Part shown: positions 3,052 to 29,485 of the stretch, piece after piece
Layout of the letters: each line of letters begins with the position of its first letter
How positions within the stretch are numbered: the first letter of the stretch is position 1
Source: a virus
Reading direction: 5' to 3' (one strand)
Length of the DNA: 64,000 bases
Virus record (IMG/VR): IMGVR_UViG_3300045988_098886
Notes under the pieces: model-generated
Told to the model about the DNA's origin: nothing
The model's database searches: none
Seen by the model: only the letters and a program-made list of their open reading frames with translations
Translations under genes and position numbers: made by a program

Positions 3052-3436
3052 CCTCTATAATGTAGTCACGAATAAGGTCTTCCTTATCTGTTTCCGTGTC
3101 TTCATCTGTTGGAATTGCACAATACTCAATCCAGTCTTCCATGTAACTATCAAACACCTCATTGGCATATTCTACCAGTTCAGGGTCTTCATCGTCTCTA
3201 TCCCAACCGAGTTCTCCATGGGCTTCTTCTATTGCATCCGCATAAGTACCTAAGCCATTGGTACCTTCGTAAGAATCATACTCTTCACAAGCTGCTTCCC
3301 ATGCTTCATGTTCTGCATCTTCATGTGACTCAAATAGGCCAGTGTACTGATACTTTTTTCCACCAAAGCCCCCGCCGAGTCCGGCATAAATGTTGTATTC
3401 TTTCATTTTACTTCTATCAATTGTTTTTACTGCCAT
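3017..3436 (-). CDS. hypothetical acidic protein (139 aa)
   Basis: ORF track; very Asp/Glu-rich. The plus-strand overlap 3109..3438 is judged a shadow ORF. Confidence 0.6.
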   Translation of the reverse strand: MAVKTIDRSKMKEYNIYAGLGGGFGGKKYQYTGLFESHEDAEHEAWEAACEEYDSYEGTNGLGTYADAIEEAHGELGWDRDDEDPELVEYANEVFDSYMEDWIEYCAIPTDEDTETDKEDLIRDYIIEDDNNTCETGCE

Positions 3437-3897
3437 AATACGTCGTTTTCAGGAATTTCAATACCAATCTGTTTGCACTTATTATATTGAGCTTGAGAAA
3501 TTCTACCTCTATATCCCGGAGTGTTCCTCATAACACGAATCCAACCTGATGCTTCAAGTTGGTCTACTGATTTCTTAAAGTAGTAATAAGCAAGGTCGTC
3601 GTGCTGCATCCAGTCACAAGGATAGAGTTTTCCGTCTCTATCTATCCAACCATTACCGTTCCACTCTTTACCAGTAGGGTCTAAATAAGTGCCTTTATAA
3701 TCAAGCTCTTCGAAGCAATCTGCTTCTACTTCTTCTAATACATCAAAAGCACTTACTGGGCATCTTCCATAATTCCCGTTATAACATAGAACATCCTCTC
3801 CGTCATGATAATCCTCAATATCTTTATCGAGGATTTGTCTCCAGCCGGGTTGTGCGCGTTCTAACCCAACTTCTCTTATTTTTATAAACAAGCCCAT
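3427..3897 (-). CDS. hypothetical protein (156 aa)
   Basis: ORF track, same-strand tiling. Confidence 0.65.
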   Translation of the reverse strand: MGLFIKIREVGLERAQPGWRQILDKDIEDYHDGEDVLCYNGNYGRCPVSAFDVLEEVEADCFEELDYKGTYLDPTGKEWNGNGWIDRDGKLYPCDWMQHDDLAYYYFKKSVDQLEASGWIRVMRNTPGYRGRISQAQYNKCKQIGIEIPENDVLWQ

Positions 3898-4584: not shown

Positions 4585-4711
4585 CGGCCAACCATGCTAA
4601 AAATATTCCCCAAGTAAGACACATAAAACACATAGCTATTACATTACTTACTAAAGAAGATATTATGGCAGCTCCAACAATTAATCCAATCCAATACCTT
4701 ACGTCTTTCAT
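4577..4711 (-). CDS. small membrane protein (44 aa)
   Basis: My own translation: MKDVRYWIGLIVGAAIISSLVSNVIAMCFMCLTWGIFLAWLADD. ATGA overlap with the stop of 4708..5121. Confidence 0.4.
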   Translation of the reverse strand: MKDVRYWIGLIVGAAIISSLVSNVIAMCFMCLTWGIFLAWLADD

Positions 4712-13138: not shown

Positions 13139-13389
13139 TAAAGAATTTTTGCTTCATTTAAGGCATACTTGAGTCCATACTGACTAACATGTGGATTTGT
13201 TACAATCCAACCAATGTTCGTTTCATGTCCCATAACATCACCGTAAAAATAAGATGCATTAGTGGCTTTGTTGTAAAATTTTCTTGCAGTTTCTTCGTCA
13301 GAAGCTTCCACTATTAAATAAGGTCCATCAAATCTTGGTTCAGGGTCTTCCATAAGACCGCCACACATTGTTCCTACTAAATACTTCAT
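13138..13389 (-). CDS. hypothetical protein (83 aa)
   Basis: ORF track. Confidence 0.6.
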   Translation of the reverse strand: MKYLVGTMCGGLMEDPEPRFDGPYLIVEASDEETARKFYNKATNASYFYGDVMGHETNIGWIVTNPHVSQYGLKYALNEAKIL

Positions 13390-13414
13390 ATCTAATCTTT
13401 TAATTGTTAATAAG

Positions 13415-13487
13415 TACCCCGTGCTGGATTCAAACCAGCGACCCGCACATTAGAAGTGTGCTGCTCTATTCACTGAGCTAACGGGGC
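13415..13487 (-). tRNA. tRNA-Arg(TCT)
   Basis: Acceptor GCCCCGT/ACGGGGT, D stem GCTC/GAGC, anticodon loop CT-TCT-AA, T arm GCTGG-TTTGAAT-CCAGC. Confidence 0.9.
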
Positions 13488-13490
13488 AAG

Positions 13491-14120
13491 TGTAGGTATT
13501 TATCACGTTACACCTACAAGTCCGGCAATCCTGTCTTATATACCGCGTGAGCTGGCGGTCTAATGCCCAGTACAAAGACCGTAATCTCTGTGTGGGACTT
13601 TTGTCCATTTTAAAGTGCAGTGTGCTAGGATATACCTAACAAGTGCACTGTGTACTTCTAAACAGCACTCCTATGGAATTACCCAATGGTCTGTCACCTA
13701 TGCTAACAGAGGTAAGGGTCGAAATACATCTTCCTTACTTATCAGTTTTAAGGTTCAAGGGCTCTGGTTTAAGTACATTAATATAGCCCTTTGTTAAAAA
13801 AGTGTAAAGAGTGTGTTGTTACACCAAATGCTCTAGCTGGAGTTACCCGTATCTCGCTTTATCTTCTTCATTTATAGGTAGTTTCAACGAAGACCTTAAT
13901 ACGACATTATTTCATTCTTGATTCGGGGCTATCAGCAAGGCTTTCTACCATAATTACGTCCTTAATCGGACAACCTACTCGCAACTCTTTAAACGATGGC
14001 TACTTCCAAGCCTACGTCCTCTTTACTTTATATTTTGGAGAGCAGCCGTTCTCTCCATGTCCGGTTCGTGCTCTACGGAGCATACAAGGTTTCGATATTA
14101 TCGCAGAGGCCGGCTTCCCT
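13491..14120 (+). ncRNA. large structured RNA with RNase P RNA-like P3/P4 motifs (strand and identity uncertain)
   Basis: No credible ORF in ~630 nt. A hairpin (13491-13518) is followed directly by AAGTCCGGC (13518-13526). GCAGAGGCCGGCTT lies at 14103-14116. GCTAACAGAGGTAAGGGTCGAAA (13701-13724) lies in between. P1/P2 were not found. Confidence 0.35.
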
Positions 14121-14500
14121 TACTCCGAACGGCTTTCTTTCAATTCTTCCCATGGAACGTACCAATAAGTTTCAAATTCTTCACCAGACAAGATTACATC
14201 GGAGTCTTCAAACTCAGTCCAACCCATGTCGCTTCTAAATCCTACAATACAGTCATCTTCACAACTTTCAGAATTATATCCTACTAAGACAGCTTCCTGA
14301 CCTTCAACGATAAAGGTTTCTCCAATGCATCTTTTTATTTCAGTAGGAATATGTTCTTCATACAGACTTTCAGGAACCATATACGTACTATCTGGACAAG
14401 GATGCCCATCAATTGCTTGGCAGAATATACATTCTCCCCATCTTTCATGTTCCATAAAATCTTGGATTTCAGGGAACGTAACCATTACATACTTTTCCAT
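14120..14500 (-). CDS. hypothetical acidic protein (126 aa)
   Basis: ORF track. Confidence 0.65.
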   Translation of the reverse strand: MEKYVMVTFPEIQDFMEHERWGECIFCQAIDGHPCPDSTYMVPESLYEEHIPTEIKRCIGETFIVEGQEAVLVGYNSESCEDDCIVGFRSDMGWTEFEDSDVILSGEEFETYWYVPWEELKESRSE

Positions 14501-15498: not shown

Positions 15499-15867
15499 TT
15501 AAATAAAGTCTATCGCTTCTTTAAGTCCTTTTTCAAGAGCTTCTTCATAAGAATCATATCTCTCAAAGGAAGAGACACGTAGAGCTCCGTCATACCAAAT
15601 TTCATAATCCCATTTCTTTGAATATACTATGTCATAATCAACTATAACTATAACATTTTTTCTATTTCGCAACCATGTTTGGGCTTCAGATTGAAGAGGT
15701 ATTGCATATTGATTGTTTTCAAGGTTTGAATTTGAATGACCAACGAAATCAGCATCTATTGTACTATGTGTTGCACCGTGGTCTTCATAAACCCATTCAC
15801 ACCATTCATTAAATCCTTTTTCTTTTAACAGCTTGGCTGTTTCCAGAGTAACATATGATTTATCCAT
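15499..15867 (-). CDS. hypothetical protein (122 aa)
   Basis: ORF track. Confidence 0.65.
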   Translation of the reverse strand: MDKSYVTLETAKLLKEKGFNEWCEWVYEDHGATHSTIDADFVGHSNSNLENNQYAIPLQSEAQTWLRNRKNVIVIVDYDIVYSKKWDYEIWYDGALRVSSFERYDSYEEALEKGLKEAIDFI

Positions 15868-16304
15868 TATGTCATAAGTTGTTGACTTGTTTCTACTGCT
15901 ATTTTATCAGCCCTTGCATTAAATTCATCTTCAAAATGGCCTTTTACCCAGCCAATACGAAGATTACCAATAAGGCTTCGCTTCTCTTTAACAATATTAT
16001 CAAGTTCTTGTAAAACATCTAAATTTGTATTTCTTTTATATTTTAATTCTCCTATTCGAGAAGTTCCAATTGCATACATTGAGTCACTAATAATAGTAAC
16101 ATCTTCCATATAAGAAGTTATACATTTAAATGCAGCAATGATAGCTTTAAGCTCCATTCTGTTATTTGTTGTATTCTTATAGCCTTTAGAAACTTCTGCA
16201 ACTTTAATAAGTTTTTTATCTTCTTCCTTTACAAATACTACCCCGATTCCTCCTTGGTTCAGGGCACTACTGTATGCGCCATCAGTATAAATTCTATATT
16301 TCAA
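15867..16304 (-). CDS. rnhA: ribonuclease HI
   Basis: DEDD residues in the expected contexts: YTDGAY, NNRMELKA, ISDSMY, NARADKIA. Confidence 0.85.
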   Translation of the reverse strand: MKYRIYTDGAYSSALNQGGIGVVFVKEEDKKLIKVAEVSKGYKNTTNNRMELKAIIAAFKCITSYMEDVTIISDSMYAIGTSRIGELKYKRNTNLDVLQELDNIVKEKRSLIGNLRIGWVKGHFEDEFNARADKIAVETSQQLMT

Positions 16305-24905: not shown

Positions 24906-24979
24906 GTTGCGAGAGCAGGATTCGAACCTGCGACCTCTAGCCGACGCCGACTAGCGAGCTAACCACTGCTCCATCTCGC
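24906..24979 (-). tRNA. tRNA-like gene with non-canonical anticodon loop (identity undetermined)
   Basis: Acceptor TGCGAGA/TCTCGCA, D arm (GAGC-AGTGGTTA-GCTC) and T arm (GCAGG-TTCGAAT-CCTGC) are all perfect. The anticodon arm is CTAGT-CGGCGTCG-GCTAG, i.e. an 8-nt loop or a 6 bp stem with a 6-nt loop, and it has no U33. Confidence 0.55.
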
Positions 24980-25041
24980 ATAGACACACATAGTGACCGG
25001 TATAATGTTATGCCTATATATGTAGCCTTCCGACTACACTT

Positions 25042-27763: not shown

Positions 27764-29485
27764 TTAGAGAGTAAGCATATTCAATAATTCTTGATTCATT
27801 GCTGCTTGGAACAATTCCAGAGCATTCTTTGGAATACTTTCAACAGGTGTTTTACCAGTAAGGAATGCAATTCCCGCGGGGTCAAGTCCACTCATGTAGA
27901 AAGTGTAATTGTCATCACAAAGTGATTCGAACTTAGGTCTGATGTTGCTCGAATAGAAACCATTAGGAATATCCCAAAGTACCATTACAAAGTTATCAAC
28001 ATACTCTTTAGAGAATCTTGTTCCCAGAAGTTCACGGAATCTTTCAAATACTGTTTTGTCTCTTCCGGCAGAGTTGAACTCACCATCAGAAATACAGAGG
28101 ATTCCAGTTGGGAAATCTTCCTCTTTATATCCCTTATCTCTAAGTTGGATAAAGAGTTCAGCCACGGATAACAGATTGGTTGAACACCAACCGTCTCCAC
28201 TGAATTTGGTGAATTTCTCATAGGGAGTATCACCTTGCCACTGTTTCATTAAGCACCTGTCGGAGAACTCAAGGACAGTATTGGCAAATTTCCCTTCGAG
28301 TAAGTAAGAGAAATACAGAGCGATTGATTTCGCTACATGATAAGCACTTACTTCAAGACCTGCGGCTTTACAAGTCATAGAGCCAGATGTATCAAGAACA
28401 GCAATAAGATTAGTCTTGCGATTCATATCTTGTTTAGCTGTTTCAATAAGAGACATAAACTGCTTATTAACAGTGTCTATCTGGTAAGGTTTCAGAGCTG
28501 TTTTTCTCCCATTATAACAATCGTTATCAGGGAACAGTTCATATACAAATCCAGTGAATTTGGCTACTGGTTTTGCTGCTAACCACTCTTCGTATGCTTC
28601 GGTAAGATTGTGATTCTCCAAGAACTTACTACTAGCAAGTTTTGATAGTGCTCTACCAGCAATCGAATTGAAATCAAGATTTAGATAGTCTTGACGGCTA
28701 ATTGCCTGCTGCCATTTATGAGCATTACCAGATGCTTTAAGTTCACGATACATTTTATATGCACGCCACTTACCTTCCTCTGCTTCGCCATAGTCGAATA
28801 TTTCTTTCACGATTTTCTTAGCAATAAAGTTATTGCTTTGAGAACGTAAAGAAGTACACTTTTTTAATGGTTTGATTTGTGGAAGATACTTTCTCACCAA
28901 GTTGGTTTGACCATCGTCAGCTAAACCACCGACAATAAACTTAATGATGTATTTCCAATCCAGAACTTTATTGACTGCACCATTGTATTCAAGGTCTAAT
29001 CTTAATATTTCAAAGATGTCGTCCCAAGAACCAGCTGTAATGAAGACAGGCAAATTCTTTTTAAATACTTTTGGGTGTGTTGTGGCAAGCCAGATAATTC
29101 TCATGAAGAACTCGGATTTAAGTCCTTGTCCTCTTTGAACTCCTAATTTCTTACCTGTAAAGAGTTTTGGATTTCGTGTAATCAAACGGATGTACACTGT
29201 TTCTTTGATTGTTATTAAAGGGTCAACTGCCCACAATCTTTCCATAGTTGATGCGACTTCGTGAAACTCTCTAGGTTTCCTGTAGTTTCCAACGGCTGCG
29301 AAGTCGTCAACAAATACATTACCTGACGTATCATACTTCAAACTTCCATTACCAGAAGTTGTTTCATGTTCCATTTTATATGCTTCCCTTTGGAAGATAT
29401 TTTCAAACTTGGGAGCATTTACTCCCGAACCTTTAGTGACTTTAGGAGTCACTTCATAAATTGATGTTCTTTTTCTGTCAAACAT
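27764..29485 (-). CDS. vWA-domain protein with large helical N-terminal domain (Ro60/TROVE-like architecture; DUF2828-like)
   Basis: C-terminal vWA with MIDAS residues LDTSGSM ... GWCSTN ... ISDGEF, plus a ~370-aa N-terminal domain. The Ro60-like assignment is an architecture argument, not a search result. Confidence 0.8.
   Translation of the reverse strand: MFDRKRTSIYEVTPKVTKGSGVNAPKFENIFQREAYKMEHETTSGNGSLKYDTSGNVFVDDFAAVGNYRKPREFHEVASTMERLWAVDPLITIKETVYIRLITRNPKLFTGKKLGVQRGQGLKSEFFMRIIWLATTHPKVFKKNLPVFITAGSWDDIFEILRLDLEYNGAVNKVLDWKYIIKFIVGGLADDGQTNLVRKYLPQIKPLKKCTSLRSQSNNFIAKKIVKEIFDYGEAEEGKWRAYKMYRELKASGNAHKWQQAISRQDYLNLDFNSIAGRALSKLASSKFLENHNLTEAYEEWLAAKPVAKFTGFVYELFPDNDCYNGRKTALKPYQIDTVNKQFMSLIETAKQDMNRKTNLIAVLDTSGSMTCKAAGLEVSAYHVAKSIALYFSYLLEGKFANTVLEFSDRCLMKQWQGDTPYEKFTKFSGDGWCSTNLLSVAELFIQLRDKGYKEEDFPTGILCISDGEFNSAGRDKTVFERFRELLGTRFSKEYVDNFVMVLWDIPNGFYSSNIRPKFESLCDDNYTFYMSGLDPAGIAFLTGKTPVESIPKNALELFQAAMNQELLNMLTL

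Follow-up and report, generated by a model that had tools for sequence, protein, structure and literature searches.

What is encoded in the 630 bases that lie between the gene for tRNA-Arg(TCT) (13414-13487, minus strand) and a minus-strand open reading frame (ORF; 14120-14500) in the IMG/VR virus record IMGVR_UViG_3300045988_098886? The window, by which we mean the whole stretch of 64,000 nucleotides analyzed here, carries these bases at positions 13491 to 14120, and an original prediction made from the letters alone had read them as a single large RNA on the plus strand, closed by a long-range CCGG helix and possibly an RNase P RNA. Our analysis makes it likely that the region is instead a row of five independently folding RNA modules, M1-M2-M3-M4-M5, on the minus strand and directly upstream of tRNA-Arg(UCU) (Table 1). 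Other phages contain the modules singly or combined differently, and M2, M3, and M5 belong to phage-specific RNA families that are widespread in gut and rumen phages and absent from Rfam 15. The source is a distant crAss-like phage of the human gut, with a large terminase that has 27 to 29% identity to those of crAss-like phages and 49 to 53% identity to those of unannotated fecal phage contigs.

The region is truly noncoding, and the description of it as ORF free was correct: each of the six frames contains 5 to 19 stops. TAA and TAG both occur in every frame, and TGA is present as well in four of them; because TAA and TAG are both found in each frame, no frame is opened by the reassignment of one stop codon. 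A protein-coding gene with a reassigned stop codon was ruled out on this ground and by the indels among relatives, which are of 1 nt apart from one of 237 nt. The GC content is 0.38 to 0.475 in the region versus about 0.30 to 0.37 in the flanks, and the fold energy relative to shuffled sequences corresponds to a z score of -3.3 on the minus strand versus -1.4 on the plus strand. The modules are 91 to 99% identical to those of relatives, compared with 88 to 90% for the adjacent coding sequence (CDS), which bears out the proposal of a conserved, structured, noncoding RNA locus in a tRNA-rich phage region. Compared with the short-form relatives, identities were 98.8% for M1, about 95% for M3, 94 to 96% for M5, 89 to 92% for M4, and 88 to 90% for the adjacent CDS. 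By these identities, the modules are under purifying selection and are conserved above the flanking CDS. A scan for sigma-70 promoters and terminators yielded none beyond the shuffled expectation, and a BLAST search of the region against GenBank phages returned tRNA matches and a 72-nt match to M5 but nothing otherwise.

Related loci were gathered via the neighboring ORF and via exact DNA words of 20 to 23 nt, and their comparison revealed the region to be a mosaic. Five close relatives (L006, L011, L018, L025, and L031) are without 237 nt that correspond to M2 plus its flanks. Three other loci (L046 to L048) contain M3 only between the ORF and tRNA-Arg, while L043 and L050 combine M3 with variants of M1 and M5 and with additional sequence. 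The second half of M4 is replaced in L042, and M2 adjoins M5 in L146. M5 alone was found in a permuted transfer-messenger RNA (tmRNA), between tRNAs, and in crAssphage cr115_1.

The functional strand of the region is the minus strand, on which ARAGORN and Rfam place all 25 tRNA genes of the window and its tmRNA. In 162 unique M3 contexts, all 332 tRNAs within 1.5 kb are on the M3 strand (332:0), and a separate strand count of tRNAs near M3 gave 498:0. The corresponding counts of tRNAs and tmRNAs on the module strand versus the opposite strand were 82:0 for M5, 22:0 for M2, and 26:0 for M1, which contradicts the assignment of function to the plus strand. In some genomes, the distance from the 3′ end of the module to the 5′ end of a tRNA or tmRNA is 2 to 4 nt for M3 (counted from the end of its helix PK-a), about 3 to 4 nt for M2, and 1 to 4 nt for M5. 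Since M2, M3, and M5 abut tRNA 5′ ends in this manner, their release by tRNA processing is implied.

M3 is an RNA with two pseudoknot helices, PK-a and PK-b. Its 5′ part consists, in order, of an A-rich leader, the 5′ strand of helix P1, AUAGUA, the 5′ strand of PK-a, AAAC, the 5′ strand of PK-b, the 3′ strand of P1, and UGA. After UGA come a variable hairpin of 11 to 148 nt, the core GACAGACCAUUGGGUAAUUCCAUAGGAGYG, the 3′ strand of PK-b, UUAGG, and the 3′ strand of PK-a. Covariance model R1 found a single copy of M3 in the window, with 96 bits and an E value of about 1e-18, such model E values being rough. In an alignment of 57 distinct sequences, the four helices, namely, P1 (7 bp), PK-a (6 bp), PK-b (3 bp), and the variable stem, are paired in 98.2% of cells, and 16 of the 20 pairs change on both sides. 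The covariation score was 0.727, versus 0.18 in shuffles, none of which (0 of 500) reached the score, and at most 0.126 with the partners slid. P1 was 99.5% paired although it had been left out of the model, and the ratio of G·U to A·C in the helices was 28:7, which favors the minus strand. The predicted secondary structure of M3, with P1, two pseudoknot helices, and a variable stem, is thereby shown to be backed by many compensatory changes.

An exact M3 22-mer, CCATTGGGTAATTCCATAGGAG, is present in 81 IMG/VR loci and at least 120 contigs from metagenomes; a search of 185,579 species genomes found it in only 7 contigs, all of metagenome-assembled genomes. BLAST of M3 against 50,697 GenBank phage records gave no match. 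In L070, L091, L109, and L134, the A-rich leader of M3 begins 2 to 5 nt after the 3′ end of a tRNA, and P1 lies 9 to 12 nt past that end; most M3 copies are without an upstream tRNA that close. The only recurrent protein neighbor is RNase H, at 11 of 60 loci, and the window itself contains an RNase H gene (PF00075) within the tRNA array (15867-16304, minus strand).

Three further observations concern sequences related to M3. A weak match to the M3 model was noted at 20090-20151 on the minus strand (16 bits; E = 0.58), the 5′ half of which, AACAAGGAAGUAUAGUA, resembles the M3 leader and P1. A partial M3-like copy similar to this match is found at positions 2079 to 2168 of L166. In L085, M3 lies 45 nt downstream of a sub-threshold permuted tmRNA (1343-1559).

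The topology of M3, with a nested double pseudoknot, a variable peripheral stem, and an invariant joining region, would suit a small self-cleaving ribozyme, and both M3 and M5 lie within a few nucleotides of tRNA or tmRNA ends. One or both of these modules might be new ribozymes and trim the precursors of phage tRNAs and tmRNAs, as do theta (hepatitis delta virus [HDV]-like) and hatchet ribozymes next to gut phage tRNAs. Theta and hatchet RNAs (RF02678; PMC10879173) occupy the same ecological and genomic niche as M3 and M5, and theta ribozymes are known to process the 3′ trailers of gut phage tRNAs, with the cleavage site within ±5 nt of the tRNA 3′ end (PMC10879173). Hatchet ribozymes are found near M5 in cr115_1 and L029, and hatchet, RAGATH-7, and RAGATH-9 RNAs occur in the same neighborhoods of related phages. 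P1 and the 3′-terminal helix of M3 are arranged as P1 and P2 of HDV, with a variable "P4." Unlike in HDV, a 3-bp long-range helix replaces the local P3/L3 hairpin and P1.1, and the joining region is 30 nt long; the position of HDV P3/L3 is taken up in M3 by 7 nt only (AAACCAG), of which 3 are engaged with the 3′ region instead, and neither a P1.1 nor a catalytic C can be assigned. M5 was unable to form an HDV-like P1 in a manual check. The HDV-like or theta fold was rejected for both modules for want of P3/L3, P1.1, or a P1 partner and of any Rfam match to the HDV family, and Rfam searches of the region, the short-form relatives, and compact M3 loci gave no family match, ribozymes included. 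Moreover, the processing could be explained by RNase P and RNase Z alone. We therefore regard self-cleavage by M3 or M5 as improbable. A broader model is equally doubtful, in which M3 would be a new catalytic RNA class (a self-cleaving or tRNA/tmRNA-processing nested double pseudoknot) that matures the tRNA arrays of uncultivated gut and rumen phages, with M2 and M5 as further undescribed functional classes.

M2 is a discrete RNA inserted between M1 and M3, and it is single copy in the window. It has a closing stem of 8 bp (GUAAAGAG/CUCUUUAC), which is retained in the minimum free energy (MFE) fold, and a 5′ hairpin with a UNNNAGU loop that is followed by the conserved UUUAAAGAGUUGCGAG. The 3′ motif, GAGCAUUUGGUGUAACAACACAC, identifies 19 loci in IMG/VR, where the RNA is 223 to about 420 nt long, and in five contexts a tRNA starts 12 nt past it. 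The alignment of nine distinct M2 sequences is ungapped and was not fitted to any structure; pairing holds in 92.8% of its cells, and both partners have changed in 12 of the 17 pairs. Its covariation score of 0.663 compares with 0.172 in shuffles (0 of 500 reached the score) and with at most 0.147 when partners were slid. The predicted closing stem and hairpin of M2 are thus shown to be backed by many compensatory changes, as in M3. No Rfam family match was obtained for M2, including the large M2-family loci.

In these large members (L146, L172, L169, L177, L173, and L175), repeated AGUA...GAA and ACGAGAGGA strings that resemble sarcin-ricin/E-loop motifs lie about 350 to 420 nt upstream of the M2 3′ motif. 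The large members are located directly before tRNAs or near tmRNAs, and they may be a separate, larger class of ornate RNA.

The paired 5′ and 3′ ends of M2 and its T-loop-like hairpin are reminiscent of bacterial and phage Y RNAs (YrlA, RF02553; PMC4201824), and a protein of PHROG 850 (labeled "RNA-binding protein" by PHROG) is encoded in the same tRNA array. In contrast to Y RNAs, the region has no match to YrlA, and the GNCGAAN0-1G motif is absent from both strands of 13488-14140; a Y RNA was rejected on this basis. The PHROG 850 protein (27764-29485, minus strand) has 573 amino acids and the Pfam domains DUF2828 and DUF7788, without a sequence match to Ro60 or any other PDB chain. It could be a partner of the small RNAs that the array encodes.

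M5, also single copy in the window, begins with hairpin A, CCGC-CAGCUCAC-GCGG, which the linker UAUAUAAGACAGGAUUGCCGGAC separates from hairpin B. Almost no variation is seen in the 5′ hairpin and the 23-nt linker, and hairpin B covaries (GUAGGU/ACCUAC, GCAGGU/ACCUGC, GAUGCU/AGCAUC, and GGCGCU/AGCGUC). Two scans found M5 in 30 and 54 IMG/VR loci, and in 12 contexts the 5′ end of a tRNA or tmRNA lies 1 to 4 nt after it. Over 72 nt, M5 is 92% identical to a segment of crAssphage cr115_1, where it lies 44 nt upstream of tRNA-Leu; this is the sole DNA similarity between the two genomes. In L014 and L029, permuted tmRNA genes were called by both Rfam (RF04321) and ARAGORN, and the stretch that separates their acceptor piece (...GCUCCAcaaaa) from their coding piece (GGGGCAUU...) is exactly M5. 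In L137 and L138, it lies between two tRNAs, and CAAAA again precedes it. Over its full length, the intervening segment of these permuted two-piece tmRNA genes is almost the same as M5 of the window. The window differs from them in that M5 is flanked by M4 and a normal tRNA-Arg rather than by tmRNA halves; no permuted tmRNA was matched in the window, and a complete tRNA-Arg follows M5. M5 is probably a leader or spacer element that is removed in maturation. A pseudoknot between GCUCACG and the loop CGUGA of hairpin B fits the window, L043, and L146, but we do not claim it, because the CGAGA found in most variants gives a central A·A mismatch.

The permuted tmRNA genes of the gut phage contigs span 630-996 in L014, 4133-4514 in L029, and, below threshold, 1343-1559 in L085, and the tag peptides read GNTMFVTDYTGLVAA and GNYSYITDYTRIAA. 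In crAss-like phages, M5 and the permuted tmRNA are surrounded by clustered hatchet, RAGATH-7, and RAGATH-9 RNAs, at 3376-3499 and 1185-1323 in L001 (cr115_1) and at 782-889, 2373-2506, 1-160, and 3985-4148 in L029. The 1.1 kb after tRNA-Leu of cr115_1 is unannotated in the GenBank record.

M1 and M4 are lineage specific. The M1 pattern was found in 17 IMG/VR loci only, all of them from relatives of this phage. Within M1, a hairpin, GGAGAG...CUCUCC (14056-14037), has a loop, GAACGGCU, with a complement in the terminal part of the ORF, AGCCGUUC (14134-14127), and the stem of this hairpin covaries (GGAGAG/CUCUCC, GGGGAG/CUCCUC, and AAGGGAG/CUCCCUU). A helix local to M1 pairs GCCGG (within 14116-14108) with CCGG (within 14066-14059), and in L043 the CCGG/CCGG pairing has changed to CUGGU/ACCAG. 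The pairing of the first hairpin of M4 is kept through the changes GUUAGG/CCUAGC, GGUAGG/CCUGCC, and GUCGGA/UCCGGC. The overlap of M1 with the end of the ORF and its confinement to this lineage, together with the position of M5, always upstream of a tRNA-like 5′ end, would agree with a purely cis-acting untranslated region (UTR), that is, a structured 3′ UTR of the ORF or a 5′ leader of tRNA-Arg with no function in trans. We consider this very unlikely, since M2 and M3 are found beside unrelated flanking genes, some copies have their own U-rich 3′ ends, and conservation exceeds that of the ORF.

Table 1. Modules, helices, and flanking features of the region, with window coordinates
Feature	Position(s)	Strand	Remarks
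126-aa ORF	14120-14500	-	Other flank of the region
M1, lineage-restricted 5′ module	14037-14135	-	Overlaps last 16 nt of ORF 14120-14500, stop included
"P4 3′ strand," GCAGAGGCCGGCTT	14103-14116	+	On the minus strand, 5′ part of M1
M2, discrete structured RNA, 223 nt	13804-14026	-	Inserted between M1 and M3
M3, double-pseudoknot RNA with A-rich leader	13651-13797	-	Covariance model R1, covariation
M3 P1, AGGGCU/AGCCCU	13790-13785 with 13763-13758	-	
M3 PK-a, UGUACUU/AAGUACA	13777-13771 with 13657-13651	-	
M3 PK-b, CAG/CUG	13766-13764 with 13665-13663	-	
M3 variable hairpin	13754-13696	-	
M3 invariant 30-nt core, GACAGACCAUUGGGUAAUUCCAUAGGAGUG	13695-13666	-	
M4, lineage-specific hairpins	13559-13650	-	
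M4 long hairpin	13650-13614	-	
M4 hairpin GGAC-AAAA-GUCC	13606-13595	-	
M4 hairpin ACAGAGA...UCUUUGU	13591-13572	-	
M5, 68-nt element	13491-13558	-	Ends 3 nt before tRNA-Arg 5′ end
tRNA-Arg(UCU)	13414-13487	-	ARAGORN; Rfam tRNA model, 64.8 bits

The strings on which the RNase P reading had been built are real. The hairpin TGTAGGT/ACCTACA is present at 13491-13518, AAGTCCGGC at 13518-13526, GCTGGCGGTCTAATGCCCAG at 13551-13570, and CAGCAAGGC at 13933-13941, and the P4 3′ strand lies where it had been placed (Table 1); GCTAACAG... is present too, with its start at 13702, one base later than first given. In that reading, the plus strand would encode a phage RNase P RNA with P3 at 13491-13518 and P4 formed by 13518-13526 with 14103-14116. 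The strings resemble conserved regions CR-I and CR-V with a U bulge on the correct strand, the proposed P4 helix is present in the plus-strand MFE fold, the locus is tRNA rich, and the short form without M2, at about 400 nt, is of RNase P size. However, Rfam 15 at the gathering threshold matched tRNAs and the tmRNA only in the whole window and no RNase P model. At E values of up to 10, neither strand of 13300-14400 matched a model for RNase P, GOLLD, ROOL, HDV-like, or Y RNAs, and the short-form relatives L006, L018, and L025 gave the same result at E values of up to 5. The models of comparison were the bacterial RF00010 and RF00011 and also RF00373 and RF02357. The original prediction had itself named a search with the RNase P models on both strands that returned no match as the bioinformatic outcome that would speak against it, and on this ground we reject the RNase P identity.

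The look-alike motifs moreover each belong to a different, independently occurring module. The "P3" and the 5′ strand of "P4" are hairpin B and GCCGGACUU of M5, the "P8" look-alike straddles the border of M5 and M4 and is lost wherever the neighbors of M5 differ, and the look-alikes of "CR-II/III" and "CR-IV" lie in segments that homologues lack: GGTAAGGGTCGAAA is within the variable stem of M3 and missing from most M3 members, and CAGCAAGGC is within the M2 insert and missing from close relatives. The two P4 strands occur independently of each other, with the "CR-I" strand (M5) found without the "CR-V" strand (M1) in cr115_1, L014, L029, L137/L138, L146, and L153, and the plus-strand P4 is broken in L043 (AAACUCGGC versus ACCAGCUU). 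No partner was found for the closing helices P1 and P2, which would fall in the antisense of tRNA-Arg, as this lies upstream of the plus-strand "P3," and the plus strand is antisense to every associated tRNA. A phage RNase P RNA is thus the least probable of the alternatives that we considered, to the point of being almost negligible. The resemblance of the region to RNase P RNA is not more than chance or is not conserved; short RNase P-like strings, the palindromic CCGG helix included, arise easily by chance.

The long-range CCGG helix itself was predicted on both strands by single-sequence folding, and it raises the possibility that in this lineage the minus strand encodes one large ornate RNA similar to GOLLD or ROOL, in which M1 and M5 would pair to close a fold of about 400 nt (630 nt if M2 is counted). 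The minus-strand MFE fold does close the region with AGCCGGC/GCCGGAC (z = -3.3), and the window, L042, and L043 types all permit the helix once G·U pairs are counted. GOLLD (RF01998) and ROOL (RF03087) have a similar genomic context, being likewise structured, ORF-free RNAs beside tRNAs in phage genomes, and the M2 family has members of up to about 420 nt with E-loop-like AGUA/GAA strings. In contrast to these RNAs of one 600- to 800-nt fold, the modules of 70 to 230 nt are autonomous: M2, M3, and M5 each occur elsewhere with their own termini beside tRNAs, and L046 to L048 retain M3 alone. RF01998 and RF03087 were unmatched in the window, in the relatives, and in the large M2-family loci, so that the proposed check for GOLLD and ROOL on both strands came back negative, even though the location next to tRNAs in phage DNA agrees with these classes. 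The long-range helix shows no double-sided compensatory change across the compared relatives, while the M1-local helix that competes with it has one, from C-G to U-A; M5 exists without M1 in many phages, and on the plus strand the long-range helix is broken in L043. A mosaic of modules that occur separately elsewhere takes the place of the single RNA closed by a CCGG helix, and we think it unlikely that the five modules form one fold in this lineage.

Some points weigh against the reading of the region as five separate modules with functions of their own. The minus-strand helix between M1 and M5 can be drawn in all three lineages that have both modules, if G·U pairs and a shifted bulge are allowed; since it is still drawable with G·U but unsupported by covariation, the single closed fold is a minority rival. 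In the M3 alignment, PK-a, PK-b, and the variable stem, but not P1, had been fitted to the model, and retrieval by exact words makes the apparent invariance of the module cores partly a selection effect. No consistent protein-family neighbor of M3 was found, and no function emerged. Finally, transcription, processing, and stability of the modules are what we infer from sequence.

The tRNA array provided several additional observations. A one-piece tmRNA at 33165-33715 on the minus strand (RF00023, 75 bits), about 20 kb from M5, was not called by ARAGORN; it spans 551 nt versus 374 positions in the model and therefore probably contains an insertion of about 180 nt. The tRNA at 24906-24980 on the minus strand was assigned a four-base anticodon (gcgt) by ARAGORN, which left its identity undetermined, and is scored by Rfam as a normal tRNA (56.9 bits). 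Some relatives have tRNA genes split in the anticodon loop: tRNA-Arg(UCU) of L043 is split by about 750 nt, with the pieces at 3801-3856 and 4607-4640, and the tRNA after M5 is split in L153 and L137 and intact in L138. The split genes suggest introns in phage tRNA genes.

Under the modular reading, the region would be transcribed within a polycistronic precursor of the tRNA type. Host RNase P would cut at the 5′ ends of tRNAs and thereby generate the 3′ ends of the modules, with the 5′ end of tRNA-Arg(UCU) as the expected cut that frees the RNAs upstream of it, and tRNA 3′-end processing or other endonucleolytic cleavage would generate their 5′ ends. The modules would be freed as stable small RNAs, like extra "genes" of the array. 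M5 most likely serves in processing or as a leader that the mature tRNA or tmRNA no longer contains. M3, in which a double pseudoknot holds an invariant joining region of 30 nt and which lacks a conserved protein-coding neighbor, most likely functions in trans: it would bind a protein or a ligand or be a ribozyme, in connection with tRNA, tmRNA, or the takeover of translation.

The tRNA cluster of phage T4 offers a precedent in its stable RNAs "species 1 and 2" (rnaC and rnaD), which are non-tRNA products that are cotranscribed with the tRNAs, are matured by the tRNA-processing machinery, and have no known function; the modules are like them by description. Keyword and motif-string searches of the literature, with incomplete coverage, retrieved no description of the M2, M3, or M5 RNAs, and the motif strings had no match in the first 200 of the 408 supplementary files of one microbiome RNA discovery paper.

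The usual annotation of a phage tRNA array lists tRNAs and the spacers between them. In this array, the "spacer" contains at least three conserved structured RNA families, M2, M3, and M5. M3 matched none of 50,697 deposited phage genomes yet recurs in well over 100 contigs of gut and rumen phages. Its covariation support is on par with that for established riboswitch or ribozyme classes, and it offers a concrete target for biochemistry. M5 connects the leaders of ordinary tRNAs with the segment excised from two-piece tmRNAs, which offers a handle on the processing of such precursors.

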